Of a stretch of DNA of 64,000 bases, positions 1 through 45,144 are shown piece after piece. The translations under genes were made by a program, and so were the position numbers. Positions within the stretch are counted from its first letter, which is position 1; the number at the start of each line of letters is the position of its first letter. A model generated the notes under the pieces. That model made no database searches. It was not told where the DNA came from and saw only the letters and a program-made list of their open reading frames with translations. Origin of the DNA: Raillietiella orientalis (Eukaryota); the NCBI GenBank assembly GCA_036172245.1, contig JAYWIR010000099.1, positions 1 to 64,000 on the forward strand, given 5' to 3'.

Positions 1-3000
1 CCGCGGAGGCCGCGCTTTCGCTGCCTTTTAAGGGTGCAGCAAAAGCTGTGTCCCAGGCGGTTGGGGAGGAACGTTCGGAGGCGTCCCTCACGAAAGTCGA
101 GGAGCGCCCCGAACGAACGGACGGTGGATGGACGGTTGCGGTGAAAGGGAGAAAAATAAAAACTCCGAAAAATTCTCTGCAACCTAGTTCCAAGAGCCTC
201 TCCAAGGCAAGGAACAGTCGCGCGATGCAGAAGACTCGAGCGATGGTTCCCTCTGCCACCGCAAAGTCTACCACCGCGGTCGCGAATGGCGCGGAAGTTG
301 CGATCGCCAGGGACGATGTTCCAACTATCGCGAAAAAGGAAGTGTCTGCGGTACCATTCGCGAGCTCCTCGAAACCGTCAGAGCAGGTGAGACTCGAAGC
401 GCCTGAGCTTTAATCAGACTCCCAAACGGAGTCTGAGATCACCGACGCACTTCGGATCACACGTGCGGAATCCGTAGCGCGACGGGCTAAGGCCCTGAGG
501 CGCGCAGCGCAGGCTGCGAAGGAGCGAGAGCTCATCTTGGAGCTTCAAAGGACGTTACGCGGTAATAAGCACTCGATTTCGTGCAGCACCAAGGAGGACG
601 GTGGCGAATGTGATCTCCAGTCTTCAGTGCTGCTCAACGTCCGCTCGCCGGTTAAAGCGGACAAAATGCCGCCAACTTGCCAGCAGTAATGCGGAAAATC
701 GCGTTTTCTCGTCGTCTGTGCGTTACGTCTTGGGACGTGAACGGACTGCAGAATGACGAGAAGAGGCGCTTAGTAGCGAACGCCCTGCGCCCCTTCGATC
801 TCGTGCTCCTGCAGGAGATTCACGTAGTCTCCGACGAGCAGGCAGCCGAAATCGAGGTGCGCGCAGGCGGAACGCTATTTTGGCGGCGCGGCGACCCACA
901 CACGTGCGGCGTCACGTTCCTCGTAAGAGGAAAAATGGCGGAAGCGGTACGTAGGGTTCGTTTTACCGACGATGGACGCATGGGCCAACTTGTTGTCAAG
1001 TGGTCCGAGTCCATCGATCTTGTCATTACGAACATCTACGCTCCGAGTGGCTCTCGCTACTTCGAAGAAAGAATTGCGCTCTTCGAGGAAGTGAAATGCC
1101 AGTGGCTCAACAACTCCGGCTCCCAAGTGGCGCAGCTCGTCGCAGGGGACTTCAACGTCCACCTGCTCTCTGACGATTGGAACTGCCCGAGGGAGCGCAC
1201 GTCGGCCATCGAAAAGTGCGCGTCAGTACGCGCTTTCAACTTGATGGTCGGCGTACCTGAGATGGAAAGGTCGCCGGATCACATCTTTCTCGATGAAAGC
1301 CTCCACCCTCGTGTGGGAAGAAGAGGAAGATTGTCGTCCGCTCTCTCTGACCATCACAGGTTGGAGTTCGAGCTCCTTCCTCCAGGCAAGGGGCCTCCGT
1401 TAAAGAACTGGAGGATGCCGGCGGATTAACTTAGCCATCCGGAGGCGGCGGATCATCTCCATCAGCACCTCCGGACCTTCGTCATCCGCGAACTCGCGGA
1501 CTGGGATCACTTAAAGAGTTCAGTCTGCGAGTTCTGTGAACGGTTTCCCTTGCACCGGCTTCCGCGAGGCTTTGGAGAAATGGTCGCCAACAGCAGGACT
1601 TTCCTGCAGGCGCGCACCTTTTCGAGACTCGCGGATGTCAGCCGGCTTGCGGAATACAGGGCGAGAGCCGAGCGCCAGGTCTGGCAGTCAGGAGCATCTT
1701 CCCTGCTCGATGAAAAAGGCCTGGAATGCTCTGCATTAGCCGGTATTCGCGGCATAATAAAAAGTTATTACTCCTCGCTATACGCGGAAGCACCAACGGA
1801 AATTACCTTTTCGGAGATACTGCTTTCCCAGGTTGCTGCCGTAGTTAGCGAATAGGAACGCTCACGTCTCGACGAGTCCTTCACGGAGGAGGAAATTTCC
1901 TCCGCAATAGCGAAGCTCAAGAGACGAAAAGCGCCAGGCGAGGATGAACTGCCTGCGGAGTTTTATCAGTGCTTCGCGGGGGAGCTCGTCCCCCTGGTGC
2001 ATCGCCTCTCGTCGCTGATGAGGGTTTCAAGGGATGTCCCCAACTTCTTCCGCTTAGCGAGGGTGCGTCTCCTTCCGAAAGGTGGAGACGCATGCCATTG
2101 AAACAACTGGCGTCCGGTCACTTTAATGAAATCGGACGTCAAGTTGTTCTCCAAGATGTGGCTTGCGCGCCTAGGGAAAATCGCGCCGTCCTTGGTGAGC
2201 CCGGAGCAGACTTACGCTGTTCCCGGGAGATCCATGGACGCGAACCTCCTGTTTGCACGCACCTGGATGCAGCTGCATGAGCGCGTAGCGCGACAAAGTC
2301 GATCCGTGACAAATGCCACTGCTAAAGGCACACGGTATCGGCAGAAGCGGCCAGAGGGTACTTTGGGTTCCTTGGCGGTCGCAGTCGACCTCCACAAGGC
2401 GTTCGATTGCGTGAACCAAGCACTAATATTGGAGCTCTTGGAACGCCTGGGTCTCCCGGCTCAACTCCTCAAGTACTTGCACGCATGCTGGCGCCAGGCG
2501 CTAACTTGCATTTGTTTTAGCGGCTACAACGTGTACGGTATTCCCATGCGCCGGGGCATCAGGCAGGGTGACAGTTTCAGCCCGTTGCTCTTTAGCATCT
2601 TCTTTGAGTTGGTGCTCAGAGCGTACAGGCTGAAGCTGGAATACCTGCCTAGCTCTTGCCCGGGAACACCCGCCGTGGCTGCCTATGCAGATGAACTACT
2701 TCTTCTGCTCCCCATGCCCACCCCGGCGTCCAGTGTCGAAGGTTTCTTCGAACTGATTCGCCGGCGAGCGGGTGTGAGCGTGAACCGGAAGAAGAGTGTG
2801 GTCGTTTCTGTAGGAGCGTCGTGGGAGGGGCAGTCCGACTGGATCCGCCTGGGGATCTTAACGGCTGGGTACTTCAAGTACCTTGGCGTTCCGTTGGGCG
2901 ACCTCGGCGCTGCCGAGGCGTGGTCGGACTGCCTTCATAAGGCAGAGTTGGCCACCAGCCCGTTCATTAACGGCAAGTTCACCTTGCCGGAACGGGCGGC

Positions 3001-4610
3001 TATTTGGAACACCTTCGTGGCCCCCCTCCTCCGACCCCTTTTTTTTGTCTTAAACTCTCCCCATGCGGCCAAAGAGCGGGCAAAACGCCTGCTAAGGAAC
3101 GCTCTCTGGGGTCCTACGCGATCCAGGATTCTTCTGAAAGACCTCACTGCTCCACGTCGGGATGCTGGGCTTGGCATCCTGACGATGGAGAGAATCGGAC
3201 TGAAAGTGCAGTTCCGGATGCTCGCACTTTGTGCCGAGCTATTTTCTTCCCACCTGTGTGCGCCCGCGCGCATCCTCCTGAGGAGGTGTGCAGGCAGTGA
3301 AGGACTACTTTCTTTGGTGCCTGGCTTGCGCCACAGGAAACAGGGATTTGGCTATCCTTTGAGGAAAATCGCCACCCTATTGAAAGCCAGTACGTAGATT
3401 ACCTGCCGCCGAATGAACTATAATCCTTGGAAGCAGGAATCCATTGATTCGTGGGCTGCATTGTTAGGAATGAGCCGTGAAGATCTTCGCCCCTTGCGTC
3501 GATTCCAACCTTGGTCACTCCAAGATGTCATGAAGGACGAGATGAAGCTTTCCTCCTTGGCCGCGACCCCCCTTGTTGAAGCACTGTATGCCCTTGAGGC
3601 TCGAGATGACAGTAGCCAGCCGGCAAGTTGGGAGTTCTCCTACACCATTGCAGGAAGAACAAAACCAGTTGGCGCATGGACCACGAGCTAGCTTGCATAT
3701 GCGGCCACTCCTCGTGCTACACCAAAGGGGTTACTTCGGTGGGGAGAAGCTGTTTGTGTTGCCCCCGATGAACTTATAGTCCCTCCATGGTGTTTGGACG
3801 GTTCGGTGTTTCCCCTTGCATGGAAGCAAGACGTTTTGCTTTTCTTGCACTGGGGATTGCGCTACAACGAGCGGCGCCAACGAGTTTCCGGTGGGGTGGC
3901 TTCTCCCTACTGTGCCCGGTGCGGAGCGACGGAGTCATTCCCGCACCTTGTTATGGACAGCGGTGCCCTCCAGGAACTGTGAAGGAGGCTAGCAGCAGCT
4001 CTCCCGTCAACAGGAGACACCGCTGGAGAAGTGCTGCGACGGTTTTTCCAGACACAAGGACTTTCGATGGCTGCCACGATTTCCACTGTTGGTTGCATCC
4101 GCGCCATCGTCACGGTCCGAGACGTGCTGGAGAATACTGGACAGCAATGTTGTGTCACCAGGAAGGCAGCTGACTTTATCAGGTCGGCAGCTGGGTGGCG
4201 ACACTTATATGAAGACACAACGGAGGAGCTAACCGGTATCCATCGACGGATCAGCAACGGCTTAGAACGACGAAATCGGTGATCCGCGCTTATTTTATTT
4301 TTAATTGGTTTTTTTGTTCTCGCGTTCATTTCCCTATACGCTCCGCAGTGGTTTTGGTGCTGAAACTTTCGAGTTTCTTGGTGACTGCGAAGCGTCATAA
4401 GTTCCCTGGACCACTCCTCCAGTTTAAAAATTTTTTTTTTTTTTTGTTTTCTTTTTGTATTTCGACTCCATTGAGTCGTCCGTGTTCTGCTGTTTTCCTG
4501 GCCTGCGTGCCAGAAGTGAATCTCCGCTGCATGTTTTCAGAGTCGAGAGCTGGAAACAATTGTTTCCAGCTCCTTTATGTCAATAAACGTCCCAACGTGA
4601 CCGGGTGAAA
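1..4610 (+). mobile_element. L1/Tx1-like LINE, element 1 (5' end outside window)
   Basis: ORF1 tail ending at TAA 687-689, ORF2 689-4282, T-rich 3' UTR, AATAAA 4582-4587 and a degenerate terminal hairpin 4591-4605. Confidence 0.93.
689..4282 (+). pseudogene. Element 1 ORF2 (APE endonuclease, RT, zinc finger), disrupted by nonsense codons only
   Basis: ORFs starting at 677, 1550, 2126, 3413, 3794 and 4031 share one frame. Motifs SWDVNG, LLQE, NIYAP, GDFN, SDH; DLHKAFD, GIRQGDSFSP, YADE, KYLG; CARC..ESFPHL. Confidence 0.92.
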
Positions 4611-7600
4611 AATTTCAACGTTCGCCTGATACCAGATGATCAGAATTCCGAGCGTGACCTGGTCAGCGAGGTGTACATGGCGATGAACACCTGAAATATG
4701 TTAACCAGTGCACCGGCAATGGAAGACAGCATTGATTACGTGTTTCTTGACGAGCACCTATGCCCTCGCGTGGGCAGGCGCGGCAAGTAACCGTGCGAGC
4801 TGTCCGACCATCGCCGGATAGTTCTCGAGATCCATCCGCGCGACAGAAGCCCCCCTTCGTCAGCGTGGCGTCTCTCAGGAGACTGGAGGAAGCTCCTGGA
4901 CGTGGCGAGACATCTTCGCACGTTCATACGGAGATTTAGGCTGCGGAAACTTTAGGATTGGGACAGCTTGAAGCTGTCGGTTCAGGAGTTCTGCGACCAG
5001 TTACCTCTTTACCGCCTATCTACGGGTTTTGAAACCGTGGTTTGTAACGAACAACCATATCTGCAGGCCCGACGTTACACCAGGACATCCGACATCCGCA
5101 GGCTGGCGGAATACAAAGCGGCAGCCGAGACGCAAGCCTAGCAGGCCGGATCTGCCAGCTTGCAGGACGATCAGGGCCAGGAGCACTCGGCACCCGCCCA
5201 AATCCGCGGCCTGCTGTGGAGTTACTACTCCTCCCTGTATCCCAAAGCACCTCCGGAGAGGAACGTCTCACGACTCCTACTTCCGAAAGGCGCTCCAGCG
5301 ATCGGGGAGGACGAGAGAAAGACCCTCGACGAGCCTTTTACGATGGACGAGATCCTCTAGGCCATCGGAAAGCTCAAGAGGCTTAAGGCTCCAGGGGAGG
5401 ACGGCCTGCATGCAAAGTTTTACCAAACTTTAGGGACTGAGCTTACCCCCATGGTACAGCAAATCACCTTGCTAATACGCGAGACAGGTGACGTTCCCGC
5501 CTCGTTTCGTTGGGCAAAGGTGCGGCTCCTTCCTAAGGGAGGAGATCTGAGAAGCATGAACAACTGGCGTCCCATTACAATAGTGAACGCGAACGCCAAG
5601 TTGCCGGCTGAGGTCTGGGCAGAGCATCTGGGACGGGTTGCCAACATCTTTATCAGCCCGGTACAGACATACGCTGTTCCTGGGCGAAGCATGGAGGCAA
5701 ACCTGTTCCACGCTACCACCTGGCTAGAGCTCCAACAAGAAAGGAGCTTGGTGCACAGCCGGAATTCTGGTGCGTGCGCCGGCAAGGGGTCGAAAGGTCG
5801 GGTGAGGAAGGGAGCCCTTGCGGTCGCAGTCGACTTGCGGAAATCATTCGATTGCGTCGACCAGAATCTCCTTCTGGAGCTTCTGGAACGCTTGGGCTTC
5901 GCGGCCTCATTAGTGGCCTATCTGCGCTCCTGCTGGCGCGACGCGCTCATCAACGTTTTTTTCAGCGGGCAGACCGTGCACGGCGTGCTGGTGCGGAGTG
6001 GGATCCGGCAGGGAGACAGCCTGAGCCCTTGCTCTTCAGTACCTACTTTGAGTTGGTATTGAGAGCGTACAGGGAAACCATGGCACACCTGCGGCGCGAA
6101 TATCCCGGTACGCCCGCGGTGTCAGCATATGCGGACGACCTACTGCTGCTGCTCCCTATGTCCACCTCGGCATCGACGGTCGAGGAGTTCTTCTACCTGC
6201 TGCATCGGGGAACCAGACTTATGGTGAACAGGGCGAAGTCGTCCGTCATGCCAGTCGCAGCGGCGTGGGCAGGGCAGCAGGACTGGGTCCGTTTGGGGAT
6301 TCCCACGGTGAGGTACTTCAAGTACCTTGGTGTGCCGTTGGGGGACTATTCCCTACAGAAGCATGGTCCGGCTGCCTTCAGAAGGCTCAGGCGGTGATCG
6401 GCCCGTTCGAGGACGGCAGGTTCTACCTGGAGGAACGGGCCGCGGCGTGGAACGCGTTTGCGTCACCCCTCCTTCGCCCCTTGCTTTTTGTTTTCCCCCC
6501 CTCAGTTGAGTCAAAGAAGAGGACGAAGGACCTCCTGAGGATCGCCCTTTGGGGCAGAGGGAGGTCCCGAGTCCGTCTTTCGGACTTGTCAGCTCCTCGT
6601 CGGGATGGTGGTCTGGGCCTCCTGACGTTGGAGCGGATGGAGCTACAGCTCCAGTTCCGAGTTGTCGCCTTCATGGCAGAAAATCGGTGCACCCCTTGGT
6701 GCCTCCCTGCACGTCACCTCGTCGAGCGAGCCACCGGCAATGCGGGACTTTCGTCCTACTTTGCACTCCGAAACCCCATTTGCCACTGCGGACTTAAACT
6801 TCGGAGGGCGGCTATGCTCGTGAAAAACAACTCGGCGCGAATCCTCGTATGCCCCGCGAACGGTCCTGCCTGGCTGCAGGAAACCGTGCGCACGTGGGCG
6901 ATGATTCAGGAGCAGAGCCCGCAACACGAGCGAATAGCTCTGTTCGTGCCGCATGCCCACCGCACGCTCCGAGAAATCATCGAGGATCCCCGAAGGAGAG
7001 CGTAAGCACAAGGTACCTCCCTTGCTGCGGTACTGCCTACCCTACGGGAACATCTGGGCAGCGACGTCGCGGCACAATGGCAGGTTACTGTCAAGATTGA
7101 CAGCAGGGCAAAGAAGATCGGGGATTGGAGAACGGGTCAGCTCACCAACGTTGCGACCCCGAGGACCACCCCAATGGACTCTTGCACTGGGGAGAGCTAC
7201 TGGATGTTCCAGAGGAACATCTCGAGTGGCCCACGGTGCTCATGGACTCGCGCACCCTCCCCATAAAGTGGCAAAGTCGGCACTGCTGGTGTTGTATTGG
7301 GGGCTTCCTTGCAACGCCCGCCGACACCACTGGACGCGGGGGGGTGTCAAACCTAATTGTGTCAGGTGCGGGGAGAAGGAATACCTCCCCCACCTGTTAG
7401 TGGATTGTGTTGCCTTCCGTCCCTTGTGGGAACGCTTTGCCGCAGCCCTGGGGATCCCCGGAGGCAACCCCAGAGACGCTATGCGCCCCCTCTTCTTCCG
7501 TGACACCCTGCCTCCAGCGGCCTTGCTTTCAGCCCTGTGCTGCCTACGCGGGATCGTCGTGGCATGGAGCAAAGCGAAGGGAGGATCCAGCGACAGGGAT

Positions 7601-7937
7601 GCCGACGTGTATGCCGCCCGTTTCCTCAGGATGGCGACGCGATGGCCCCATCTGGAACCACACACGCAGAAACAGATTGCCGGCATCCTGCAGAGGATGA
7701 CGGACCCTCCCAGCAGACTGTAATCCCTTCCCGCTCCCTCCGTGATATATGTTTATTTTTTTGTTTTCTATTTGTTTCGTTCCCCCTCCCCTCTGCCGTT
7801 GAGGTCGACCGCGCCGGTCTGCGCACCGGTAGCCCGGCAAGCTATATCTTTCCAGGGCGTGGCTGGACTACTGGTCCAGTCACAGATTATATGGGTTCAT
7901 TCGAGAGAATAAACGTCCCGGCGCACCCGGGTTTCAA
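4611..7937 (+). mobile_element. L1/Tx1-like LINE, element 2 (starts inside the endonuclease domain, frameshifted)
   Basis: Begins at FNVRL (the GDFN motif). NWRPIT, GIRQGDSLSP, YADD and CVRC..HLLVDC follow; ORF2 stop at 7723; AATAAA 7908-7913; hairpin CCCGG-CGCAC-CCGGG 7917-7931. Confidence 0.92.
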
Positions 7938-9390
7938 GCGAAAATCTAGAGGGTGACGCCTCGCAGGAATTCGCGAAGATGTTCTTTCGCTCCAGACAGG
8001 CGTGTCCAGTCCCCTGGCATACGCCAATCCCTGGATGGCGGTACCTTGTCGCGCGGGCGCATCTCGAATAATATTTGGGAATGGTCCGACAGCGTCGATC
8101 CAATTGTTCCTGGTTTTTCGACCCGTGTGCACAGATCTTCGTCGAGGAAGACGTGGTGCACGCTGCTGACCATCCCGTGTATTTCTGTCAATAAGTTGCG
8201 CGCGCGCATGGCGACGCACAACACGTTGATCGCGTTCCCCTGCGCTATGGTCTGATCTGAGAGCAGGCGGACGTTGAAATTCCCAGCTATCAGATGCGCC
8301 TTTTGTACGTCCGCGTCCACCAGCCATTCGCGCTTCAAGGTTTACAGTAACGAGTTGCGCTGCTGGTATCCCTGTTTACCGCTAGGAGCGTAATCATTGG
8401 TGACGATGAGGTCGATCGAATCGGTCCATCTGAGAAACAGTTGGCCGATCCGTCCGTCGTCCCCAAAGCGCACGCCTTTCACGACCGCGTTAATGGCTGG
8501 CTTCAGAAAGAACGCGACCCCACAAGTGTTGCGGGCGCCGCATCATCAGTACAACCCCCCCCCCCGCGATCGTTTGCATCTCCTGCGCGTCTTTTGCGGT
8601 GATCACGTGGATCTCCTGCAAAAGCACCAGGTCGAAATCTCGCAAGGTGGCTGCTGTGTCTCATCTGTTTCCGTCGTCGCGCAGCCTGTTGACATTCCAA
8701 CTGTCCGCGCGGATCCGACGGCGACAGGCGAGTCCAGGTGTTATTCCTGGTAACCTGGTGGTTGGGCTTCCGCCACCTTTTGGGGCGGGTCCCTAAACGG
8801 TGTTGGCGTCTTGCCCACCAACTCCCCATCCTCCTTACGTGCCGACGTCTCCGGCTGCCCGTGCGAAGGGGGTGCTGCTCGTACCTGTTGGCCCACATCC
8901 ATTGGTGCGGGTGGTTCAGGTTCGGCGGTTTCAGAGGGCATTGCTGACCCCTGGTTACCCTCCTCCATTGGAGTCGCCTCCTCGTCGGCTTCCGCACGTG
9001 GGTGATGCCCAACTTGGGCTCCCACGCTGCCATCCACTGGTTCCTCCACCATTGCATCCTCCTCGCGCCGAGGCGGAATGCACCTTCGGGGCTTCGGGGA
9101 TTTTCGTCCAGCTTTCCTTAATGGTGCTTCCGCAGAGGAAGATACACTTCCGTCCTACCGGTCCGACTCACCTGCGGGGGCCATTTTAGACGCTGCCGGC
9201 CTACGCAATCCCTTTCGCGAAGGGTTCTCGCGTTCGGCAAGCGTTGCCGCAAGCTCCTGCGCGGCCTTCTCGAAGGCTGCGTCCTCGGTTTCGGCGAGTT
9301 TGTCACCCGACTGACCCTCTTCGCAAGCAGGGGGTGGGTTTTCGCGCGCATCCGTCGCGGCGGGAAAATCGATTGAAGCCGTATCGCCTC
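7938..9390 (-). mobile_element. Fragment C' (ORF1 C-terminus plus endonuclease), close copy of element C
   Basis: Reverse complement aligns closely with about 14326-15761 (e.g. MVEEPVDGSVGAQVGHHPRAEADEE; KREWLVDADV). Confidence 0.92.
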
Positions 9391-10133
9391 GAAGTGTCCC
9401 GATTCGATCGACCTGGTCGTTACATACATCTACGCTCCAAGCGGCGGCCGGCATTACGCCCGGCGACTCGCGTTTCTGGGTGGCCTGCGCAGCCGCTGGC
9501 TCAACGGCTTTGGCTCCAACGTGGCGCACCACCTTGCAGGAGACTTCAATGTCCACCTGCTTACAGAGGAGAGATGCCGCCTGAGGGAGAAGCAAATGGT
9601 GAGCGAGGTATGCGCATCCGTACACGTGCAAAACTTGCTTGCTGGTAAGCCCAGGATGGAGAGATCTCCGGACTATGCGTTCATCGATGAACACCTGCTC
9701 TCACGAGTAGGTCGGAGAGGGAGCCTGCTGTCCGAGATTTCCGACTATTGAGGACTGGAATTCGAGCTGCTCCCGCCTGGCATGGGGCCTCCGATGAATA
9801 TCTGGAGGCTTGCGGCAGACTGGTTTAGCAATTTGGAGGCGGCGGAGCTTCTCCGCCTGCACCTCCAAGGCTTTGCCATCCGCGGAATGCGACGATCTGA
9901 AAAGATCGGTCTGCGAGTTCTGCTGCCGCTTGCTTTTGCACCTGCTTCAACGCGGTTTTGGTGAGGGTGTCGCGAACAGAAGATCCTTTCTGCAGGCGCG
10001 TACCTTTTCCCGATGCCCGGACATCCGGCTTCTTGCGGAGTACAAGGCCAGGGCCAAGCGCAAGGTCTGGCAGACCGGAACATCATGTCTGCTCGATGAC
10101 GCTGGCAAGGAATGCTCGGCTGCAGCCGATGTT
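9391..10133 (+). mobile_element. LINE fragment A (endonuclease C-half plus linker)
   Basis: DSIDLVVTYIYAPSG, AGDFNVHLL, ISDY and CLLDDAGKECSAAADV; cut by the 3' end of B1. Confidence 0.88.
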
Positions 10134-13127: not shown

Positions 13128-13149
13128 GGACGTGTTTTTTGGTCGCTCC
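13128..13149 (+). promoter_or_regulatory. Candidate internal promoter motif of LINE C
   Basis: GGACGTGTTTTTTGGTCGCTCC at +13 from the TSD; 19/22 identical to the motif at the 5' end of E. Confidence 0.55.
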
Positions 13150-13223
13150 CCCAACGCCTGTCTGGGAAGCAACCGGAGTTTTTTTAGTGTAGTCAGGTGT
13201 TAAGTGTGGGTCATCGGTGTCCG

Positions 13224-22925: not shown

Positions 22926-22940
22926 ACCAAGAACGATGAA

Positions 22941-33643: not shown

Positions 33644-34481
33644 TAAGGCTGGGAAGGTGAGAACAGATTTCTCGCCTTGTCCGGCGAGTCGTCACGAGAA
33701 AGAGCGGTCGATCTCGGAGACTGGACATCTTCATTCGAAGCCGCACTGCTTGTTGCCGGTAGCTCAGAGGTGAGGTCCTTTTCCACCTCTTTGCCCCCCA
33801 ACAACAGTTCCTCCTCGGCAACCACGCGCTTGCGGGTCTTTGGTAGGCGATTGCGAGGTTTCGGGCGGGTTTCGCGCTGTGTACTCATTCTGTCGGACTC
33901 TGGATCGGAATCTGACAGTCGAGCGCTTTCCAGGCACTGCTGCTGTTTCCCGGAATTAGGGAAATCGTTCGCTGCCTGTTTCCTAGCGCTTTCTGCAACT
34001 GGGGCTGGGACTTTCGTCCTTTTAGCAGCAGCAGCTGCTTCCCGCTCCAGCCGCGAGAGGACGATTGCGCAGGAGGAAAGAATCGCAATCTTTTTCTGGG
34101 AAGGTTTCGCGGGTTTATTTCGCCCACTCACCTTCACACAGAGCTGCGAAGACCTTGATGGTTTCTTTCGAATGATCTTTCTCGCCTGCATCCAGCCGTC
34201 TTCCTTCGCGTCGCAGTTATCTTTACCATCCTGAGATGGCGCTGCTCCCACGGATGTAAGAGGCGTTGCCTTGGCTGCCTCTTGAAGTGCTGCCTCCACG
34301 CAGGCGTAAGCAACTCCTCTAGCGATCGCGAGAGCCTTGCGCACGGGCGGTATCGCCGCCGCTGAACGAAAGGGAGGCGTGATTACTGCTAGTTTAAAAC
34401 TATACCCAATACCCCGCCAAGGCAGTGTTTAAAACCACTGCCAAGGCAATTTTTGAGTGCCCTGAGAGGGCAAGTGTTTGA

Positions 34482-36389
34482 GTGAACGCCAGTGTGGAAA
34501 GAGTGCAACCCGGGACCATCATCATCAGCAGCAGCAGCGCCGAGAATTCCACGGTGGAAGTCCTGCAGTCGTCCCGAGCAGCCGGAACAGCTGCCAGGAT
34601 GCAGGCATCCGGAGTTGGAGGAGTGGTGAGGCCATCGTCCCCCATGGAAGCCATGGAGGTAACGTGCGGCAACGGCGAGGTGGCGGCAGGCATGCCGAGG
34701 ATCGCGCCCGCGGCGGGCTTTGCTGCGCCGGCGGCGCCGATGCCAAGGGTCGTGCCCGCGGCGACGACGGCGGAGGTCGTGCCCGCGGCGGCGACGCCGA
34801 GGATAGTGCCCGCGGCGGGGAAGGTCGCGCCTGCGGCGGCGATGCCGAGGGTGCCGCCCGCGGCGGTTACGGCGGCAACGTCGAGGTTTGCGCCCGCGGC
34901 GGCGGCGCCCCAGGCGGGACCCGCGGACGTCCACGCGGTGCAGGGAACGACGCCATCTTGTTCGGCTGCGGCGTCGCAGCCCTTTTCTTATGCGTCGGTG
35001 GCGGCTGGACAGGCGAGTGTCCACCCACCTAGGAAATTCGGTAAGCCGCTTAGCGGAAAAGTTCTAAAAGTGGACCGACCAATAGTCGAAATAGGCCCCA
35101 ACGTGAAGCCCATTATCTTCAAGACCGGGCTAATAAAATTTAATAACATCAGGGAGGTCTATTTGTCCCTCGACAAGACGGACATAGACTTTGATCGCAT
35201 TCAGGCGATCATTCCATCGAACAACGGGTTCACAGTCTTTACAGACTGTGAAAACATTAGAGAGCGATTGATCCAGAAGGGGATCAATATACAAGGACGG
35301 ATGGTTTGTGGTATTGGCGAGATGCCATACACAACCGTCTTTTTAAACGGCATCTCCATCCTCACACCGCAACTAGCGGTGTGGAATTACTTGGAGCAGT
35401 TTGGGGAAATTCTGGACCTTGATTTCCAGAACTTCTCTGGAAACATATTTTCTGGCGACATGATGGCCAAGATGAAGTTGAGGGAGGGAGCGGTGATCCC
35501 TGGATTGGCCGTTATTGACGAACAATCCCAGGGAGCGAATGTGCGTTACCGGCAACAACCGGTATTCTGCACCGAGTGCAAGCAGTTAGGACACAGGGCC
35601 GGCGCTTGCCCAACTTGCCGCTGCTTTCGCTGCGACAAAGTAGGACATCAAGTCCGAAACTGCCCGCAGCCGGAGGTGTGCTCCTTCTGCAAGAAACACG
35701 GACATGCGAAATGGAGCTGTCCGGAGTTTGAAAACTGCAGAAGGATTCGAGGTCTCTCTCTCGTGAGAGAGAGAAACATCAAGGAGGCCGAACAGCCTTA
35801 GAAGGCAGGAAGGCCGAAAAAGGTGAAAGAAGCCGTCCCAGTATCGAAAAACGGCTTCATACAGGTAGAGAAGAAAGGAAAGAGGAGGATGCTCTTCAAG
35901 GAGCAAGAAGCTCCTCAAATCCTAAAAGCAGCAAAGCAGGAAAGCGAGAAGATGGAGGTAGCGCAGGAAGGCGCGAAGGAAGAGAGACAGGAAGCCACTA
36001 AAGTGTCGCAGGAGGCTCTGCAGACCACGGAGGAGTTGGCAACACTGGCGGAGGAGATCATGTAGGTGCAGAGCGGTCCTCAGCAAGACAAAATCTTGCA
36101 GAAGATCTGCACTGCACAAGAAAACATCAACCAGGTTGTGGAGGTCGCTGAACGCGAGAAGTTAAAGGAACAGCTTTTCGACGTGAACGCGAACTTCTGC
36201 GCCAAGGTCGAGATAGAGGCGCTATCTCGAAAATTGATCGCGCGGGCGGAACACTCTACGGAGGAGGCGGAAATTACCGAACTCACAGGTACGGAGAGTG
36301 ACGCCGGCAGCGAGAAGCCCGCTGCTTCTTCGACGTCTGGAAGAGCACGCTCTCCCAGAGAGAAGAAGCTCAGGAAGGCCAAGAAATAG
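34482..36389 (+). pseudogene. Element F ORF1 (three CCHC knuckles, coiled-coil-like tail), two in-frame TAG stops
   Basis: CTECKQLGHRAGAC, CFRCDKVGHQVRNC, CSFCKKHGHAKWSC. TAG at 35799 and 36063 with the frame preserved. Start codon uncertain. Confidence 0.87.
34692..34910 (+). repeat. Imperfect GC-rich coding tandem repeat (MPRVVPAA-like units) in F ORF1
   Basis: Recurring GCCCGCGGCG core; peptide MPRIAPAA, MPRVVPAA, EVVPAAA, PRIVPAA, MPRVPPAA. Confidence 0.8.
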
Positions 36390-36402
36390 GTCTTTTCCTT
36401 TT

Positions 36403-39400
36403 ATGACCTCTTCCCAATCGACCGCCAGGAGGCTGAACATCGCCTCCTGGAACGTAAACGGTGTGGTCGACCAGGGAAAAAGAAGAAGGATTGTGCGGAC
36501 CATCGCACAACAAGACATCGTGTGCCTGCAGGAGACCCACAGGATGGGTCTCGAGATAAGCCAGCGAATGGAACGGCGATTCAACGGGCAGATGTTCGTC
36601 AGCGAAGGAGAACGGAACACGAAGGGTGTGGCGGTGCTAATAAAGAACAACTTAGCCCCCACTATTCTGGAAGTGTTCTGCCCCCAACCCGGACGAACCA
36701 TCGGCGTGCGTCTGGCCTGGTCCGCAACTGTTCACCTTATCCTGGTGAACGTGTACGGGCCGCACAGGCTAAAACATCGTTGTGCGGAGGCGCTGCATGC
36801 AACACTCCGGCAAAAGGTCGCCCCTAAGCACGTCGTGATTGTTGCTGGCGATCTCAACATCTTGGATGAGGTCATTCATTCAGAAGACGCCAGAGGAAGG
36901 ACGGCGTATCGACGGCTATCCGAGGAGTTCGGACTGGTCTGGCGAACAGCAAGCCACAAGCCAATCGATCACGTCCTGCACAGCACCGAACTTGGGAACC
37001 GCATCCAGGGGTTTCGCGACACTATGACTACGGTGTCCGATCACCCCCTGGTGCGGTTTTCCTTAAGAACGGAGAATCCTCGGCGAAGGCAAGGCACCAG
37101 GGCGGCGCTCATCAGCATGCCCGCCTGGTTCGAATCCCATCCCGGACATCAGGCTGTCCTGGAAATGATTCTGAAGACAACAACAATCCGAAGATTCGCC
37201 GATTGGGACAGCTTGAAACACAGGATACACCTGTTTGCAAACATGCAGTTCGGGGATAGGCGCTTGAGGCAGGAGGCGTACCGGGAGCTGATCATCCAAG
37301 ATCGCTCCCTCTCAAAGTACTTCGATCAGTACGAGAGTCGGTACGTCCTCAATAACATAAAAGGGGAAGTCGGCGTGCTGGAGAAGAGAAATCTGGCAAC
37401 AGATATCTTCTGCATCCAGTACGACGGCCAAAAGCGACAGTCGTCTGAGGACATCGTGGATGCCTTTCACAGGCATTACACGAAACACTTCAGGCGACAA
37501 CAGCTGTGTCGCTCTAGTCAACAGGCCTTCTTGAGCTATCTCGAGAAGAGGACCGACGACCTCCAGCGGAACAGACTGGAGGAGGAGTTCTCCGAAGAAA
37601 AGGTGAAGACTGCGTTTGGGCAACTTCGCAAGGACGTGGCAGCGGGCCCTGACAGTGTACCCATCACTCACTATCAGCGGTACCTGCACGCCTACCTGCG
37701 CTTGTTCCACCAGTTGACCCTGTGCATCCGGAAAGAAGGCAGACTACCTCAGTCCTTCTACGAGAGTCGGATGAGATTGCTGCCGAAAGGAGGCGACTCT
37801 ACTCAGATCGCCGAATGGAGGCCAATCTCGATCCTAAACTCCGATGCCAAGTGGTTGGCCAAGATCTGGTCCAATCGCTTAGGCAAGGTCATGTCGAGGC
37901 TGATCTCTCCGGTCCAGACATTTGCAGTCCCAGGACGACACATGTCGGACAATGTCAAGTGTGCCCAGGCCACTGTTGGACTCAGTCGATACGTCGGCGA
38001 GAACCTGGTGCTGGTGTTCACTGACATGGAGAAGGCCTTCGACTCCATCGACCACGGGATGCTGCTGAAGGTTCTGGCTTCCGGAACACTTCAGCAACTT
38101 CGTGAGGACGGTACTCCAGAACCAGTACTGCCGGATCAAGATCAACGGCCAGGAGACGGCAGCAATCAGAATGGAACGAGGAGTCCGACAGGGCGACTCG
38201 CTAAGTCCGATGCTGTTCGTCATCTATATGGAGGCGTTGTCGTCCTTTATCGAGAAGAGCGGACGACTGAGCGGGATTACCATCGATGGCCAGCGTCTTA
38301 CTCATCTGGCATACGCCGATGATCTACTCTTCTTCATCAAGGGAGAGAAAAATCAGCGTGCGTTTCTGGATGTGGTGGACCTGATGGAACAGGGCTTGGG
38401 CTTAAAAATCAATTCCCAGAAGAGCCAGCTTTTGCCCGTCGGAATCCTGAACCTCTCCACTCTAACGGGTAGTGGATTCCGTACGGTGGACACGGCCAAG
38501 TACCTGGGAGTGTACATCGGCGACGACTCTACGTCGTAGCTGCTGTGGAAGGAAATCCTGGGGAAAACGACCAAGGAAGCAGGCAAGTACACCCGAACGG
38601 ACCTTGGGATGAAGCGAAAGGCCAACATATAGAACGGAGTACTCCTTCCGAAAGTGCTCTTCGGGACGGCCATTGCGAGGATGAACAAGGACACTACTAG
38701 GTAGTTCGACAAGCTGCAAAGAAAAACACTCTGGGGCCACTATCGCCGAAGAGTAAGACTGAAACCCCTGTGTCGTCCCAGGGAAGAAGGCGGTTCCGGG
38801 ATGAAGTCGCTTGCACATTCCATGGAAATCATGGATACGCGACACATCCTGGACATTGCCACTCACTGGGATGACTGGCCGTATGCGGCGCACAGGGCCT
38901 ACGCGTTGTCTCTTAACAACTCGAAAGGCCTGATGACTGCGCTGCTAGGCAAAGTAGGGGAATGGATAACAATCGACCCGACCTGGAGGAGGAAGCAACG
39001 ACTGGTGCGAAAGCACAAAATCAAGATCGTGCCGCGAAGCAGGGAACTCTGGCAGGACGAGTTCATCCTGGTGATCCCTTGGATGCTTCCTGTCCCGCCG
39101 GACACGAGAAGCTGGATCTACCAGCGGACCAGAGTTACCCTACTGCATATCCAGGAGTGGAGGCGAGGAGGCTACCTACATCAAACTCGTATACTTCGGT
39201 ATACAGAGATGATGTTAGGAAGGTTTACCCACCGGACCCGCTAAGTGTGGTTCAACCACAACGACTTCGCATGGTCGAGGGTAACAGAACAAACCTCCGA
39301 AGGCTTATCCAAGAAAACGACCGTGACACCAGTGCCCTATAGGAAGCCACCGAACGCTACGGGAGTGAACGGTTCAACCTGTTAGCGATCAGCAGGACGC

Positions 39401-39909
39401 TCTGGAGGAGTGACCTTCCGCCGGGCACCCAGGATGACCTCCTCATGTTTTATCACGGAGGAATCCAGAGTGGGTCCCGATTGCAGCACTTCACAGGAAG
39501 ACGGGAAGACCGAGACTGCGCAGCATGTGGAGACGACGACACGAGACTTCACGTCTTGACGTGTCCCACACTGCTGCATGACTGGCTGATCCTGAAAAGG
39601 ATCATAGGACTCACCAACAAGTCCGTTATGGAGATCCTCGCCGGGATGTTTCTTGGGGATGGTAATGTTCCCTGTTACAATCCTATGGTGAGGACGACCA
39701 TAGCCCTCTTCATCACGGCCATACTTGTGCGGTGGTGGAAAATGAGGAAAGCCAGGAGAGCCGCACCACCGATGGAGATCCTACAAGGGCTCTTGAAGAG
39801 GGAAATCGGCATCAGGAACTGCGGGAAGATCCACGCCTGGACGTACCGATTCATCCTGAAGAGGATCCAGGACGACGCCCGGGACCATCCAGCTGGAATT
39901 CCCCCCTGA
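36403..39909 (+). pseudogene. Element F ORF2 (endonuclease, RT, zinc finger), disrupted
   Basis: IASWNVNG, CLQETH, NVYGP, GDLN, SDH; WRPISILNSD, DMEKAFDSI, GVRQGDSLSP, YADD, KYLG; CAAC..HVLTC. Frameshift near 38080 and several stops. Confidence 0.92.
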
Positions 39910-41510
39910 AAAGCAGAACTCTAGTGCAACCCAAGGACCCCCAAGTGCAAAATGTTTGTATTGAGTGAATGAGAGTGCGAATGTAAATATTGTATTTTTA
40001 TAGAAAAATAAACTTACCCCACCCCTTGTGGGACTTGTGGAAAATTAGCGATCGCGAGAGGCTCTGCCTCTTCCAGATCGGAGGGTTCGCGCGTTGCCTT
40101 TGCAAGCGTCGGGGGCACTGCTGTAGCGGTTGTGCTCGCCCTAGCAGTTTCTTCCTTGGCCGCAGTAGGCGCTGCGTCCGCGCGCGAGGACTGCGGGTTT
40201 GCCGGCTGTTTCTTCGCGGCACTCGGTGCCTGGGGCACCTTGGCCACGGTAGCTTCAGACGCGCGGTGTTCTTTGCCCGCGGGTGCGTTTTTCCCGTATC
40301 GGGCGAACGACCGCATTCCGCGCCGCTCGTCGAGGCCTTGGTAAGAGGCTTCGCGGTAGTGATGCCGACAGTAGGAGGCTTTTTGACCTTGGGCACAATG
40401 TCTCCTGCATTCAACAATTGTCTGCGAGGTCTCGTAGAAAGGTCGCATTCTTCGCGAGCTTCCTTCGGGTAGATAGCCGGAGGCTTAGCCGACCTAAGCC
40501 GCGACGAGTTTTTTTGTGTTTTTCACCCGTTCTTTGTGGGGGCGAGAAACAGTTTTCTGCACGTGCGTGGGCGCGGTTTTCGCAACGCTTTTCGGAGCTT
40601 TGATGTTTCTTTCTCTCGATTCGCTGCGATTATTCCGCGATGCGGAACGCGATTCGTTCCTGCGCTTTTCGTTTTTTAAAAGGAGCTCCGGGCACGTCCC
40701 CTTAGTGTGCCCGTGCTCGTGGCAGTGACGGCAAGCGGCCGAGGGACACTCCGTAATGCGGTGACCCTCCTGCCCGCATTCCGCGCATACACGGGTTTGC
40801 CCGGCAAACCACAGGCGGACGGTCATCCCATCCACCTGCAGTCGCGTGGGCATTGCCCGGCGATCCGCCATCGTCACTCGCGCCTGCGCGAGCCCGCTGT
40901 GGTGGTCTTCGAACCCTTCAGCAGGGTTTGGCAGCCTCCAAAGCGCGTGGACGGTAGCGAATTTTTCAAGGGCCTCCACGACCTGGCGGTCCGAAAGCCC
41001 CTTACACACTCCACTCAGCCGGACAACGAACGACTGATCCGCAGTGGTGAGGAGTATTTCCTGCCCACGAATGAGCAGTCGCGTGTGCAGCAAACGCTGC
41101 GTAAGGAGAGCGTCCTTACTGGACACCTTCCAGTAGCCGCACCCACTCATGGGCATGATGGACTCCAGTTGGCCTTTTTGAACTCCAATCCGTTGGAGTT
41201 CCTGGCCAAACTCGCGTCCAACCTGCTCAGGCATAAGGACACTTATCTTATACCTGAGTGCAGGCGTGTAGCCATTTGCTACATACGCCTGAAGCTCAGG
41301 GCTGTCGGGCGAAGGTCCCATCGTAGCCGCGAGGGCAGCGACCCGGGCGAATGTCCTCGCCGTCGGCGAGGACAGAGGCTTTTTGCTAGCAGCCGAAGCA
41401 GCCATCTCAGGAGCAGGTGGCGTTCCCTTCTTGCGGCTGATGTTCTTCTTTGCTCCCATTGCAGCACAGAAGCACAGCAGAACAAAAACACACAAGAGCC
41501 AATCTACCGC

Positions 41511-41532
41511 GGAGCGACGCAAAAGCACGTCC
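41511..41532 (-). promoter_or_regulatory. Candidate internal promoter motif of LINE E
   Basis: GGACGTGCTTTTGCGTCGCTCC at +12 from the TSD. Confidence 0.55.
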
Positions 41533-43993
41533 GTACGCGACCGTCGCTGATGCGTGAGACGGGAGATGTTCCCCCTTCTTTCCGCTCTGCAAAGGTGCCA
41601 CTCCTGCCGAAAGGCGGTGATTTGCGCCACCTCAGCAACTGGCGCCCGATTACATTGGTGAATTCGGACGTCAAGTTGTTCTCCAGGCTATGGGTCGCGC
41701 GCCTGGGGAGAATCGTGGAGTCCTTGGTAAGTCCGGAGCAGACGTATGCTGTTCCGGGGCGGTCCATGGACGCGAATCTCTTCTTCGCGCGAACATGGTT
41801 CGAGTTGCAGCAGCGCGTGGCGCAGCAGAGCCAGGCAGCCGAAATCGCGGCAGCCAAAGGTAAGCGGAGGTGTTCAAGGCACGATGGAACGCCGGGAGCC
41901 TTAGCGGTCGCCGTCGATCTCTGCAAAGCATTCGACAGCGTAAACCAGCACCTCCTTCTGGAGCTTCTAAGACGCCTAGGCCTCCCGATGCACCTCATCG
42001 CCTACTTGCGCTCCTGCTGGCGCCATGCGTTATGCTGTATCTCTTTCAGCGGGCGCCACGTGTACGGCATTCCCATACGGCGGGGTATCAGGCAGGGAGA
42101 CAGCTTAAGCCCCCTGCTCTTCAGCATCTTCTTTGAGTTGGTGCTGAGGGCGTACAGGGTGACGCTGGCCAACCTGCCGAGCTCCTGCCCGGGAACACCG
42201 GCCGTAGCCGCCTATGCTGACGACCTTCTCCTGCTGCTGCTCATGTCCACCCCGGCGTCCAGGCTCGAGGACTTCTTCGAGCTCATTCGTCGGGGAGCGG
42301 GCCTGAGCGTCAACAGGACGAAATCAACCGTTGTACCGGTTGGCTCTACGTGGGAGGGGCAGTCCGACTGGATCCGCCTGGGGATCCCCACGGGTAGGTG
42401 CTTGAAGTACCTCGGCGTTCCCTTGGGCGCCTTCTGTCCAGCAGAAGCGTGGTCGGACTGCCTTCACAAGGCCGAGACTGCTCTGGGCCCGTTCCAAAGC
42501 GGCAGGTTTCTCCTGTCGGAACGGGCCTTCGTGTGGAACATTTCCGTTGCCCCCCTCCTCCGTGCCCTCTTTTTTGTTTGTCCGCCTCCCTACTCGGCTA
42601 AGCGCCGGGCGCAACGCCTGTTGCGTGACGCCCTGTGGGGACCGGTGAGGTCCAGGATACGCCTGAAGGACTTGGCGGCTCCTCGGCGGGATGCAGGATT
42701 GGGCATCCTGACGCTGGAGCGGATCGGACTGCTAGTGCAGTTCCGCATGCTGGCACTTTGTGCGCAGCTCTGGACTACTCCCTGGTGTGCTCCAGCGCGG
42801 CTGCTGCTGCGGCGCTGCACGGGTGGCGACGGACTACGTTCGTTGCATCTGCGCACGGAGCGCGCCCTGAGAGGATTCGGCTTCCCTTTGAAGCAGCTCG
42901 CCACGCTTCTGGGAAAGCATGAGTGGATCTCCTGCCGGCCGATGAACTTCAACGCCTGGAGGCAGGAAGCCTTATCGTCCTGGGCAGCGCAACAGGATGT
43001 GTCCCGTTTGGAACTACGTTGCGTGAAACTTTCCCCATACTGTCCAGTGGGGGAGGTGCTGGAAGACCAGGACCAGTGGACACTCCTAGCCGCTACGCCA
43101 CTCGCCGAAGCACTGTGTGCACTGATGGTGCGAGATGACAGTGACCTGCCGGCGAGGTGGGAGATCACTTGCGAAATCGCAGGCGAAACCCTACTGCTGG
43201 GCGGCTGGAGGAATTGCGAAGTGGCAGACGCTGCCACACCTCGCCTTCGTGCAAAGGGACTTCTCCGGTGGAGTGAGCTCCTCGAGGTGCTCACCGATGA
43301 ACTTGTGGTACCTTCTGCGTGTTTGGACGCGGCTCTCTTCCCCCTTCGGTGGAAGCAGGACGCTTTTCTGCTGGTGCATTGGGGTTTGTACTGCAACCAG
43401 CGGGCGCACCTGATTTCCGGAGGAGTTGCGTCCCCGAACTGTGCCAAATTGGGAGCGGTGGAATCGCTTCCGCATTTGCTGTTGGAGTGCGGTGCCCTCC
43501 AGGATCTGTGGCAGCGGCTGTCTTCAGCGCTCTCGCATCCCGGACACACCGCACTGGATTGGATGCGCCGCTTCTTCACGCGTGGCTGCCTATCTCTTGG
43601 GGCGGTCGTCGCAATCATCTGCTGCGTCCCCGCCACTGTCAGGGCCCGCCACGTATTGCAGATGTGAGCAGTCCCAACATCGGTCCCCGACACCGCAGCC
43701 TGCAACCTGCAAATGGCTGCCGGGTGGTCACATCTTGGATCAGAAGTAAGGACGGAGATCGGTGGCATTCACCGCCGGTTCTTGGAATAGGAACGGCTAA
43801 ACTGCAGACCCCTATCCCCACCCTCCTACCATATTTATTTATTTATTGTCCCCCCCTGCCGTTCCGAACTCTCAGTATTTGTCCGACCTGCGCGTCGGGA
43901 AACCCTTCCTCTCAACTTCTGCTCCGTTGGCCTGGGAACTGTGTTCCCAGTTGATTTCTCATCAATAAACGTCCCGGCGCAACCGGGCTACAA

Positions 43994-44540
43994 ACAACAA
44001 CGCTGCAGCTTTTCATTATCTCTCCACTCGGTGGATTTTTGCCGCGGTACACGAGGTTTTTGGATTCCCTTTTTTCTTTTGCAGTTTCTTTGGCAGTGAC
44101 CATCTGCCACCTAGGCCCCTGGTCGTTTCCCTCGACGTTTTCGGCGTTGTTCGCCGTGGTCTCGGATGCGGCCTGTGCCCTGGATGTGGTGGCACAGCTT
44201 TCGCGGCAGCTTTCGCCGCAAGGCTTTTTTGTAGCAGCCAGGCACGTTTTTTTAGGTTTCTCGCGTAAACCACGCGCACAGCTGCTTGTGAGCATACCTC
44301 CCGCGTGTGACCCATCGTCTCGCACATCTGGCACTGCACGTTGGGACACCTCTTTTTGAGGTGGCCCGACGTATTGCAGAATCCGCAGTACTTGGGTTTC
44401 CCCACATACCAGAGATCGACGGTTTCGCCGCCGAACACCAGTTTGTGGGGAAGGAAACAGCCCTTCCGGACGGTGACGCGTGCAGCCGCGAGGCCACATT
44501 GCAGTCGAGTATAATTCACAAAGGTAGAAGGCTTGCACCA
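43994..44540 (-). mobile_element. LINE ORF1 fragment K
   Basis: GLAAARVT..VDLWYVGKPKYCGFCNTSGHLKKRC..CQMCETMGHTREVC, homologous to C ORF1. Confidence 0.85.
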
Positions 44541-44544
44541 CTGT

Positions 44545-45095
44545 GCGTGTACCGTACGGTTCTGTTGGTGCTCAGCACGGAGGCGAACCGGCACGCACCA
44601 AGGAGTGCTCCAAAACTTTCGCTTGTGGGCGAGGATCAACCAGCAACGCTCGGAACGGCTGCGAAGATTTTTGTTCGCTCGGCACAACAACTGCACGCTC
44701 CGAGAGATCCTGGAGGATCCCCGAAAAAGCGCGTGGGTAGGGAAATTCACCCTTGCTGCGGGGCTGCCACACCACAGGGAACATCTGGATAGCGACATCG
44801 CGGCAGAATGGGAGGTTACCGTCAAGATGTCCGGAAGCAAGAATAGAGGAATAGAGAACGTGTCAGCTGACCGACACTTCGACTCCGAGTACCACCCCAC
44901 ACGGACTCTTGCTCCTGGGCGAACTGCTGGATGTTCCGGTGGAATTCCTGAAGTGGACCCCTGTGCTCATGGACACACGCACCCTCTCCATGAAGTGGTA
45001 GCAGTCGGTGCTTTTGGTGCTGCATTGGGGTCTTCCATGCAACGCCCGCCGCCATTATTGGATGTGGGGGGATGTCAACCATAATTGTGTCAGCG
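44545..45095 (+). mobile_element. LINE ORF2 C-terminal fragment L
   Basis: TLREILEDPRKSAW and VLLVLHWGLPCNARRH, similar to element 2. Confidence 0.8.
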
Positions 45096-45144
45096 AGGAA
45101 ACTTATCTTTGCTCGCTTCACCTTTCACCACCGCCTAAACGTAA

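Follow-up and report, generated by a model that had tools for sequence, protein, structure and literature searches.

Independent LINE insertions reuse the same host nucleotides within a 45-kb LINE nest of Raillietiella orientalis

Introduction

Do long interspersed nuclear elements (LINEs) that pile up inside one another land there by aim, by the pull of a region, or by chance? This question is raised by a 64-kb window of Raillietiella orientalis (JAYWIR010000099.1 positions 1-64,000), the whole stretch of DNA analyzed here, which contains one 45-kb locus of nested LINEs. Site-specific LINEs, such as R1, R2, and members of the Tx1 group, are models of how an element finds a safe harbor and serve as starting points for targeted gene insertion. 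The original prediction proposed that the lineage in this locus may target its own relatives. Herein, we report that two sites inside resident LINEs, and probably a third, were reused by independent insertions. These reused host nucleotides suggest that the LINEs aim at sequences inside their own relatives. The prediction is supported to that extent; the orientation bias of the insertions (8 of 10 antisense) was not significant.

A Block of Nested LINEs

Positions 1-45118 of the window were confirmed to be wall-to-wall LINE sequence, with abutting segments on both strands. LINE homology covered 42360 of the 45118 bases (93.9%), counting nhmmer matches to three LINE copies from the window together with element F, which is bounded by target-site duplications (TSDs). 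The eight uncovered gaps of more than 1 base measured 63-612 bases and were stretches of open reading frame 1 (ORF1) or untranslated region contiguous with mapped elements. The proposal that about 45 kb hold no recognizable host DNA was thus borne out. In the first 45 kb, 26 of 39 stop-to-stop ORFs of at least 200 amino acids matched Exo_endo_phos, RVT_1, zf-RVT, or zf-CCHC in Pfam. All LINE copies were dead, each ORF2 being broken, and the longest homologous stretch was 707 amino acids.

Three nestings carried perfect TSDs, as had been predicted. Element C (13116-17790, +) lay in B1 (10132-13115 and 17791-19160, -), flanked by the 9-bp TSD TCGCCGAAA at 13107-13115 and 17791-17799. Element E (29846-41543, -) lay in G (26846-27722, 29614-29845, and 41544-43998, +), flanked by the 12-bp TSD TCGCTGATGCGT at 29834-29845 and 41544-41555. 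Element F (34335-40045, +) lay in ORF1 of E, flanked by the 15-bp TSD TAGCGATCGCGAGAG at 34320-34334 and 40046-40060. Excising each insert together with one TSD copy gave a stop-free host frame across the joint, with lengths of 684, 539, and 371 amino acids for B1, G, and E, respectively. Since E lies in G and F lies in E, the insertion order was G, then E, then F, in agreement with the earlier proposal. S3 was likewise nested in G, and b and a reached with their 3′ ends into c and b, respectively. The entire block arose as younger LINEs inserted into older ones by target-primed reverse transcription (TPRT). In addition to the TSDs of 9, 12, and 15 bp, several 5′-truncated copies and a common 3′ motif were present as hallmarks of this process.

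All 10 readable 3′ junctions in the first 45 kb lay in ORF1 or ORF2 of another LINE. They had been described as abutting coding sequence of the same LINE group, and this description holds except for its narrow sense, since F is a distant lineage with 25-35% amino acid identity to the other LINEs. The insert was antisense to its host at 8 of the 10 junctions (p = 0.11), and a and R were the two sense cases.

Reused Insertion Sites

Positions within the elements are given as R-coordinates, which count along the reverse complement of 19160-22930, with R1 near the start of ORF2 and R3770 at the 3′ end. At site B, S1 (the 3′ part of B1) in fragment d and S3 in l, the first part of G, met their hosts at the identical nucleotide, the sequence reading GCCGAT and GCCGAC up to the junction, respectively. 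The alignment of this site spanned 1023 columns with a mean column identity of 85%, in which the S parts were close and the host flanks far more diverged. Codon-block counts gave 7.3% divergence between S1 and S3 versus 31.2% between the host flanks d and l. At site A, the breaks made in c by b and in B1 by C differed by no more than about 2 nt and fell in codons of a conserved ...GFGE motif. The nhmmer coordinates had placed these breaks 90 nt apart (R750 versus R840), and direct alignment resolved them to the same site. At site C, the TSD flanking E in G was at most 9 nt away from the point at which R adjoins S2 with its 5′ end.

Sites A, B, and C all fell within ~430 nt between the endonuclease (EN) and reverse transcriptase (RT) domains, and 5 of the 10 3′ junctions in the window were at these reused sites. 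The inserts at all three sites were antisense to the host, which places the first-strand nick on the host sense strand. Sites A and B were each hit at the same host nucleotides by independent insertions. Site C is probably a third reused site, represented by one full insertion and one 5′ junction.

The site used followed the lineage of the insert at two of the sites. The site A inserts, b and the 3′ half of C (X), were sister lineages with a support of 0.99, and both site B inserts belonged to the S family in the tree. The hosts also differed in sequence at these sites. The word TTCG(G)C was present at site A in 2 of 2 hit copies versus 0 of 7 aligned unhit copies, and CAGCCGAY was present at site B in 2 of 2 hit copies versus 0 of 4 aligned unhit copies.

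The independence of these insertions was evaluated from sequence divergence. Host pairs at each reused site were only 65-70% identical. In the pairs of ~70% identity (E/R, G/S2, b/X, c/h, and d/l), third codon positions differed by 42-47% and second positions by 15-24%. This codon-position bias indicates that the pairs diverged under selection as active lineages and not as duplicated dead DNA. True siblings were flat across codon positions, with 6-7% among S1, S2, and S3, 7.7% for c/Y1, and 11% for k/E. The contrast between biased host and insert pairs and flat siblings excludes duplication of a pre-formed nest as well as 3′ transduction. For the common flanks of S1 and S3 in particular, 3′ transduction was rejected, as the flanks were ~31% diverged versus ~7% for the elements.

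Coincidence was modeled as uniform insertion with 10 junctions, a 6-kb host, two orientations, and a tolerance of +/-5 nt. The probability of at least two coincident pairs was 6e-4 and that of at least three was 6.5e-5, in a test made post hoc.

Explanations for the Pile

We lean, with a little better than even confidence, toward a self-reinforcing LINE pile built by lineage-specific endonuclease preference for sites inside resident LINEs. In this account, younger copies would insert into older ones by repeated TPRT, the part established by the nestings. As the recurrent junctions suggest, resident LINEs would offer the endonuclease of each lineage preferred short words on their sense strand, most of them within the ~430 nt that separate EN from RT. 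Incoming copies would hence arrive antisense, at the same nucleotide of different, independently acquired hosts. Because the preferred words would sit in a multicopy element, LINE copies would in effect serve as landing pads, and nesting would enlarge the cluster. The further step, that these LINEs find their main genomic target in relatives, is conjecture.

If this account is true, lineages that land at set nucleotides in other LINEs would represent a new target class. It would also provide a mechanistic explanation, without a chromatin cue, for self-assembling LINE-only islands, including centromere-like ones. The junctions of each lineage would then be expected to pile up at A, B, or C of resident LINEs.

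Several observations weigh against endonuclease preference. A single 45-kb locus supplied all the data, and the coincidences came to attention post hoc. A generous model with 11 events, a 1.5-kb target, and a tolerance of +/-10 nt gave probabilities of 0.05 for at least two and 0.009 for at least three coincident pairs. Half of the 3′ junctions (a, R, S2, G, and F) were at non-recurrent positions, two of them in sense orientation, and the orientation bias alone did not reach significance at p = 0.11. At site C, the word rule failed, as S1 and R were near-identical there yet unhit, and the lineage pattern was less clean, with E from clade I and R from clade II. The flanks of R misfit a simple insertion. 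No clear motif common to sites A, B, and C was found; the sole loose resemblance was a CG 1-4 nt 5′ of the nick at 6 of 11 junctions, scored by eye. The 12 columns 5′ of the nick were not unusually conserved, ranking in the 42nd-53rd percentile, with a weak value for site B, whose column was placed by a guessed motif. The idea of a conserved-codon target is therefore unsupported. Inspection by eye also revealed no priming microhomology of the insert 3′ tails with the target at the nick.

A stronger version of targeting, which we regard as tentative, is LINE-on-LINE parasitism, in which each lineage homes to a site of its own between EN and RT in LINEs that are rivals or relatives, at specific nucleotides of their coding sequence and always antisense. 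If true, it would give the insert a safe harbor, disable competitors, and generate growing LINE-only islands by itself. The small nuclear RNA (snRNA) U4 at the head of F would then hint that some members are, or descend from, elements that target snRNA genes.

Accumulation directed by a region appears less likely still, though we take it seriously. In this view, the LINEs would follow a chromatin cue, for example, that of a centromere or of heterochromatin, as with ZeppL, Celine, and Jockey-3-type elements. Nesting would be a byproduct, and the recurrent nucleotides would stem from just a modest nicking preference on an all-LINE substrate. Centromeric LINE-only islands of tens of kilobases are documented in the available portions of PMC8226300, PMC3446292, and PMC11288735. 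The GC content of the LINE block was 54-61%, versus 36-45% beyond 56 kb in the right flank, as in the Zepp clusters described in the portion of PMC3446292 at hand. The distant lineage F landed in the block too, and the five non-recurrent junctions also fit this explanation. However, the TSDs of the poplar LINE Celine are all unique in the available text of PMC11288735, whereas two to three sites were reused here. The inserts at sites A and B were lineage-specific, and no satellite arrays or other centromere hallmark was found within the 64-kb window, which also count against a regional cue.

A passive graveyard, which we consider unlikely, would combine random genome-wide insertion with retention in a tolerant region of low recombination and no genes, leaving the coincidences to luck or mutational hot spots. 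The death of all copies, with every ORF2 broken, agrees with this, as does the older debris that continues to ~55.5 kb. On the other hand, uniform insertion yields two or more coincident pairs with a probability of only ~6e-4, the lineage predicts the site used, and hit copies carry words missing from unhit copies. Finally, the repeated junctions are very improbably copies of single events that arose when an existing nest was segmentally duplicated or through gene conversion or misassembly: the order of (-) element, (+) host, and S (-) does run parallel at 7.9-13.1 and 25.5-29.6 kb, but the site B inserts differ by ~7% versus ~31% for their flanks, sites A and C show, for flank pairs and insert pairs alike, a strong codon-position bias that is unexpected for decaying duplicated dead DNA, the left neighbors c and k are different parts of different families, and the perfect TSDs with restored frames counter a chimeric assembly.

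Map of the Elements

Element a (1-4611, +; clade I) contained the tail of ORF1, ORF2 with EN and RT, and its 3′ end, as supported by Pfam matches to EN and RT and an nhmmer match at 643-4317; its 5′ end lies beyond the window. The 3′ end adjoined b in sense orientation and carried a degenerate AATAAA motif and tail at ~4585-4611. Element b (4612-7937, +), the sister of the 3′ half of C in the tree, started at R406 (nhmmer R406-3756; 3′ motif at 7908). Junction alignments placed its 3′ end antisense in c at site A. Fragment c (7938-9393, -; Y family), mapped by nhmmer, extended from the C-terminus of ORF1 to EN and was broken at site A by b. It was 92.3% identical to the 5′ half of C by self-blast, and its divergence from Y1 was flat across codon positions. 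Fragment d (9394-10131, +) covered the EN-linker region of a host LINE (nhmmer R233-1026) and ended at site B according to the flank alignment with l; B1 (S1) was inserted antisense in it there. The 3′ part of B1 (10132-13115, -; S family) matched R813-3767 by nhmmer, carried a 3′ motif at 10139-10162, and included the TSD copy at 13107-13115.

Element C (13116-17790, +), delimited by Pfam and its TSD, was full length at its 5′ end and contained ORF1 with its CCHC knuckle, EN, an RT-bearing 3′ half (X), and a 3′ end. C and E shared similar full-length 5′ ends. An internal deletion at 15761/15762 removed ~R735 to R1724 from C. The left edge of this deletion was 16 nt upstream of site A, where c, 92% identical, is broken by b. 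This proximity is either a coincidence or a third hot-spot event, for example, an old sense-oriented insertion that was later co-mobilized.

The 5′ part of B1 (h; 17791-19160, -) comprised the TSD copy at 17791-17799, the start of ORF2 with EN, and the C-terminal part of ORF1 (nhmmer R4-840; tblastn ORF1 match at 18899-19117), and it ended at 19160, where the 3′ end of R cuts into it. Element R (19161-22930, -), the sister of the S family, retained a nearly complete ORF2 and its 3′ end, with Pfam matches to EN, RT, and zf-RVT and a 3′ motif at 19181-19204. Its 3′ end lay in ORF1 of B1 in sense orientation, and its 5′ end adjoined S2 at site C. No TSD was found for R, and its flanks, B1 ORF1 at 19160 and S2 with site C at 22930, misfit a simple insertion. 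Around R, partner sequences were missing: B1 lacked its 5′ portion, S2 its left side, k its 3′ portion, and d its right side. Their absence suggests insertion-associated deletion or another rearrangement. The two flanks of R, the left flank of S2, and the k/l and c/d junctions imply deletions or more complex events and not simple insertions. Twin priming was rejected for the head-to-head junction of R and S2, as the coordinates misfit and the elements are of different lineages.

S2 (22931-25470, +; S family) started at site C (R1257), and its 3′ end lay antisense in k at R1886, as mapped by nhmmer; it was 93% identical to S1. Fragment k (25471-26845, -; E family) spanned R518-1886 by nhmmer and was 89% identical to E, with flat divergence across codon positions. 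The first part of G (l; 26846-27722, +) extended from R103 to site B by nhmmer and junction alignment. S3 (27723-29613, -; S family), with a 3′ motif at 27732-27755, was antisense in G at site B and 5′-truncated at ~R1915, a boundary set by alignment with S1 and S2. S3 in G had no detectable TSD, and ~50 nt of host were missing; a 6-bp candidate TSD, GCCGAC, was rejected because the hexamer is S3's own sequence.

The second part of G (n; 29614-29845, +), identified by nhmmer and the TSD, ended at site C with the TSD copy at 29834-29845. The 3′ part of E (29846-34334, -) contained its 3′ end (motif at 29852-29875), ORF2 with EN and RT by Pfam, the distal ORF1, and the TSD copy at 34320-34334. 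F (34335-40045, +), a full-length distant LINE antisense in ORF1 of E, was delimited by its TSD, the restored frame, an Rfam U4 match, and Pfam. The 5′ part of E (40046-41543, -) held the TSD copy at 40046-40060, ORF1 with a CCHC knuckle (Pfam zf-CCHC), and the full-length 5′ end, which was bounded by the 12-bp TSD. The third part of G (q; 41544-43998, +) ran from the TSD copy at 41544-41555 through RT to the 3′ end (motif at 43964-43987; nhmmer; restored frame). The 3′ end of G lay antisense in fragment u (43999-44605, -), an ORF1 piece of another LINE with 52% amino acid identity to C ORF1 at 44286-44582 (tblastn) and an nhmmer match at 44065-44555. We also considered u and k as one element split by G and rejected this, since u had no nucleotide match to ORF1 of the E family. 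Fragment r (44606-45118, +), a piece from the 3′ half of a LINE (R2746-3194 by nhmmer), was 74.7% identical to b in self-comparison.

Older, degraded LINE pieces were found by nhmmer and tblastn at 48383-48654 (+), 51190-51732 (-), 52429-54590 (+, with a 3′ end), and 55195-55459 (-). This debris, reaching ~55.5 kb, extends the LINE-rich zone past 45 kb. The older LINE ending at ~54550-54590 (+) had a degenerate AATAAA-hairpin 3′ end followed by sequence without detectable LINE homology, and its 3′ junction at ~54590 was the only one in the window that possibly lies outside a LINE. Two inverted copies of a ~340-bp repeat, 94.7% identical, were present at 45130-45468 (+) and 54837-55176 (-). They flank the degraded-LINE zone, and each adjoins a LINE 3′-region fragment; no TSD, LINE-like 3′ motif, or Pfam match was found for them. 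In the right flank, at 36-43% GC, an ORF at 63165-63863 (+) contained a piggyBac-type transposase domain (DDE_Tnp_1_7, E = 2.2e-45) and appears to be a DNA-transposon remnant.

Element F and Its U4 Head

F began with a complete U4 snRNA at 34333-34470 (+), which matched Rfam RF00015 over positions 1-138 of 138 with 90.5 bits and retained the Sm site and the 3′ stem. The U4 copy formed the exact 5′ end of F, and U4 nucleotides 1-2 overlapped the end of the left TSD copy. As U4 occupies the exact 5′ end within the TSDs, F is a U4-LINE fusion that was retrotransposed as one unit. F further contained an ORF1 with a CCHC knuckle, an ORF2 (EN and RT) frameshifted after 38319, and a 3′ AATAAA with a small hairpin. 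Imperfect GC-rich tandem repeats of 27-48 bp were detected in its ORF1 at 34683-34902 (TRF scores 96-137).

The U4 sequence could stem from a one-off template switch, be the head of a family, or derive from co-transcription that began at a U4 gene. Chimeras of snRNA and LINE of the U6/L1 type, formed by template switching, are summarized in the available part of PMC4494074, citing Buzdin 2002 and Garcia-Perez 2007. Like them, F starts at U4 nucleotide 1 and is TSD-bounded, as expected from a jump of RT from LINE RNA to snRNA. In U6/L1-type chimeras, the LINE part is a 3′ fragment, whereas that of F is full length. According to the same portion of PMC4494074, snRNA-derived 5′ sequences occur in the Tx1 group.

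Lineages and Classification

The elements followed a common plan, with ORF1 carrying CCHC knuckles and ORF2 carrying EN, RT, and a Cys-rich C-terminus. At the 3′ end, AATAAA was followed by a hairpin (GC stem of 5 bp, loop of 5 nt) and a short A/C tail (such as ...CAAAC or (AAC)n), and no poly(A) was present at the 3′ ends of these LINEs. The AATAAA-hairpin motif had 7 matches versus 0 expected from 100 shuffles, and degenerate copies were recognized by eye in S2, a, F, and the copy at 54.5 kb. The 5-bp stem and 5-nt loop was the minimum-energy fold in 5 of 8 3′ ends, and no z-score went beyond -1.4. The predicted 3′ hairpin is thus backed by sequence conservation and not by energy. In F, the stem used different letters with pairing kept, as judged by eye.

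A tree of the RT 3′ half resolved clade I, with a, E, and G, and clade II, with b and X (support 0.99) and with R as sister to S1, S2, and S3 (support 1.0). In addition to the distant F, the block holds at least three diverged lineages. Exo_endo_phos and RVT_1 scored above Pfam cut-offs in many copies, and both were found in one ORF (36238-38319). The zf-RVT match reached 29.6 bits in R, with a cut-off of 27.5; S3 and S1 were below the cut-off at 23 and 20.6 bits, respectively. For both lineages searched, the closest solved relative was human L1 ORF2p (E = 8e-19 and 2.5e-30), versus 2e-14 and 3.6e-09 for R2. Based on these features, the elements are classified as LINEs of the apurinic/apyrimidinic endonuclease (APE) type in the L1/Tx1 supergroup; the assignment is to supergroup level, with the Tx1 clade as a candidate only.

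All three ORF1s examined contained zf-CCHC, and neither RRM nor Transposase_22 was found in them. An ORF1 type with zf-CCHC is also described for plant L1s in the available text of PMC5203782. Protein searches gave JGI protein P0022 as the nearest database protein, at 61% identity, and a 132-aa fragment at 62%. All other protein matches were at most 46% identical, and the high-scoring ones at most 39% (turtle, Closterium, and pseudoscorpion). A cluster look-up of 10 protein matches returned no clade names, and the ESM Atlas returned generic RVT_1/zf-RVT clusters only. Scanning for the 3′-end motif gave 0 matches in metagenome contigs and 0 in viral contigs. An RT-alignment search of metagenomes listed 80 loci, all just 24-33% identical.

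Comparison with Known Systems

Self-nesting LINE clusters have a precedent in the L1-type Zepp and ZeppL elements of green algae (Coccomyxa, Chlorella, and Chlamydomonas), so the novelty implied by the original prediction for the self-nesting idea is lower. The portions of PMC8226300 and PMC3446292 at hand describe clusters of up to ~42 kb of nested LINE copies that are GC-richer than the surrounding genome. The R. orientalis block shares with the clusters so described a high GC content and the nesting of copies of one LINE group in each other. In these portions, Zepp forms tandem same-orientation arrays, mostly of 3′ ends, whereas here 8 of 10 insertions were antisense at internal ORF1 or ORF2 positions. 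In further contrast to Zepp, the block involves several lineages of only 55-70% identity, reuses specific nucleotides, and has 3′ ends without poly(A). Zepp-type clusters are recognized by lying at centromeres or by occurring once per chromosome, and the present locus is known from one 64-kb window.

Celine colonizes poplar centromeres and forms LINE-rich islands, with ~7% of copies nested within themselves, according to the available text of PMC11288735. The same text gives a frequent AT-rich word as the nick motif of Celine, finds no two of its TSDs alike, and regards its targeting as chromatin-based. Both systems, as Celine is described there, form islands rich in LINEs that are partly nested in themselves, and the reuse of identical host nucleotides here is the difference.

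The excerpts of PMC4494074 available to us report that endonucleases of the Tx1 clade are sequence-specific and that Tx1 families target defined positions of other transposons. Among the targets given there, Tx1L inserts in Tx1D (piggyBac-type), Keno in U2 genes, and Tx1-Mar in Mariner-N4_AMi; Tx1-8_Crp and Tx1-4_AMi target LTR retrotransposons, and Tx1-9_AMi targets Harbinger. Partner short interspersed elements of Tx1 insert 'in the opposite direction' near one target position, and target specificity is defined in these excerpts by more than 20% of flanks lying in the target. The elements studied here resemble the target-specific Tx1-clade LINEs described there in being APE-type and, judging by the two to three sites reused at this one locus, perhaps also in inserting at a defined position of a multicopy sequence, which in the Tx1 cases includes other transposons. 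They differ in that the targets are related LINEs, hit at three positions by different lineages.

No report of LINE lineages reusing nucleotides in the ORF2 of related LINEs was found in the full-text literature, a search that had subscription journals and Repbase Reports outside its reach. Site-specific LINEs are recognized by independent copies at the same target nucleotide, and such copies were observed at sites A and B, within 0-2 nt. Self-nesting LINE clusters such as Zepp and ZeppL and transposon-targeting Tx1 LINEs are already known; the reuse of sites inside relatives is the new point.

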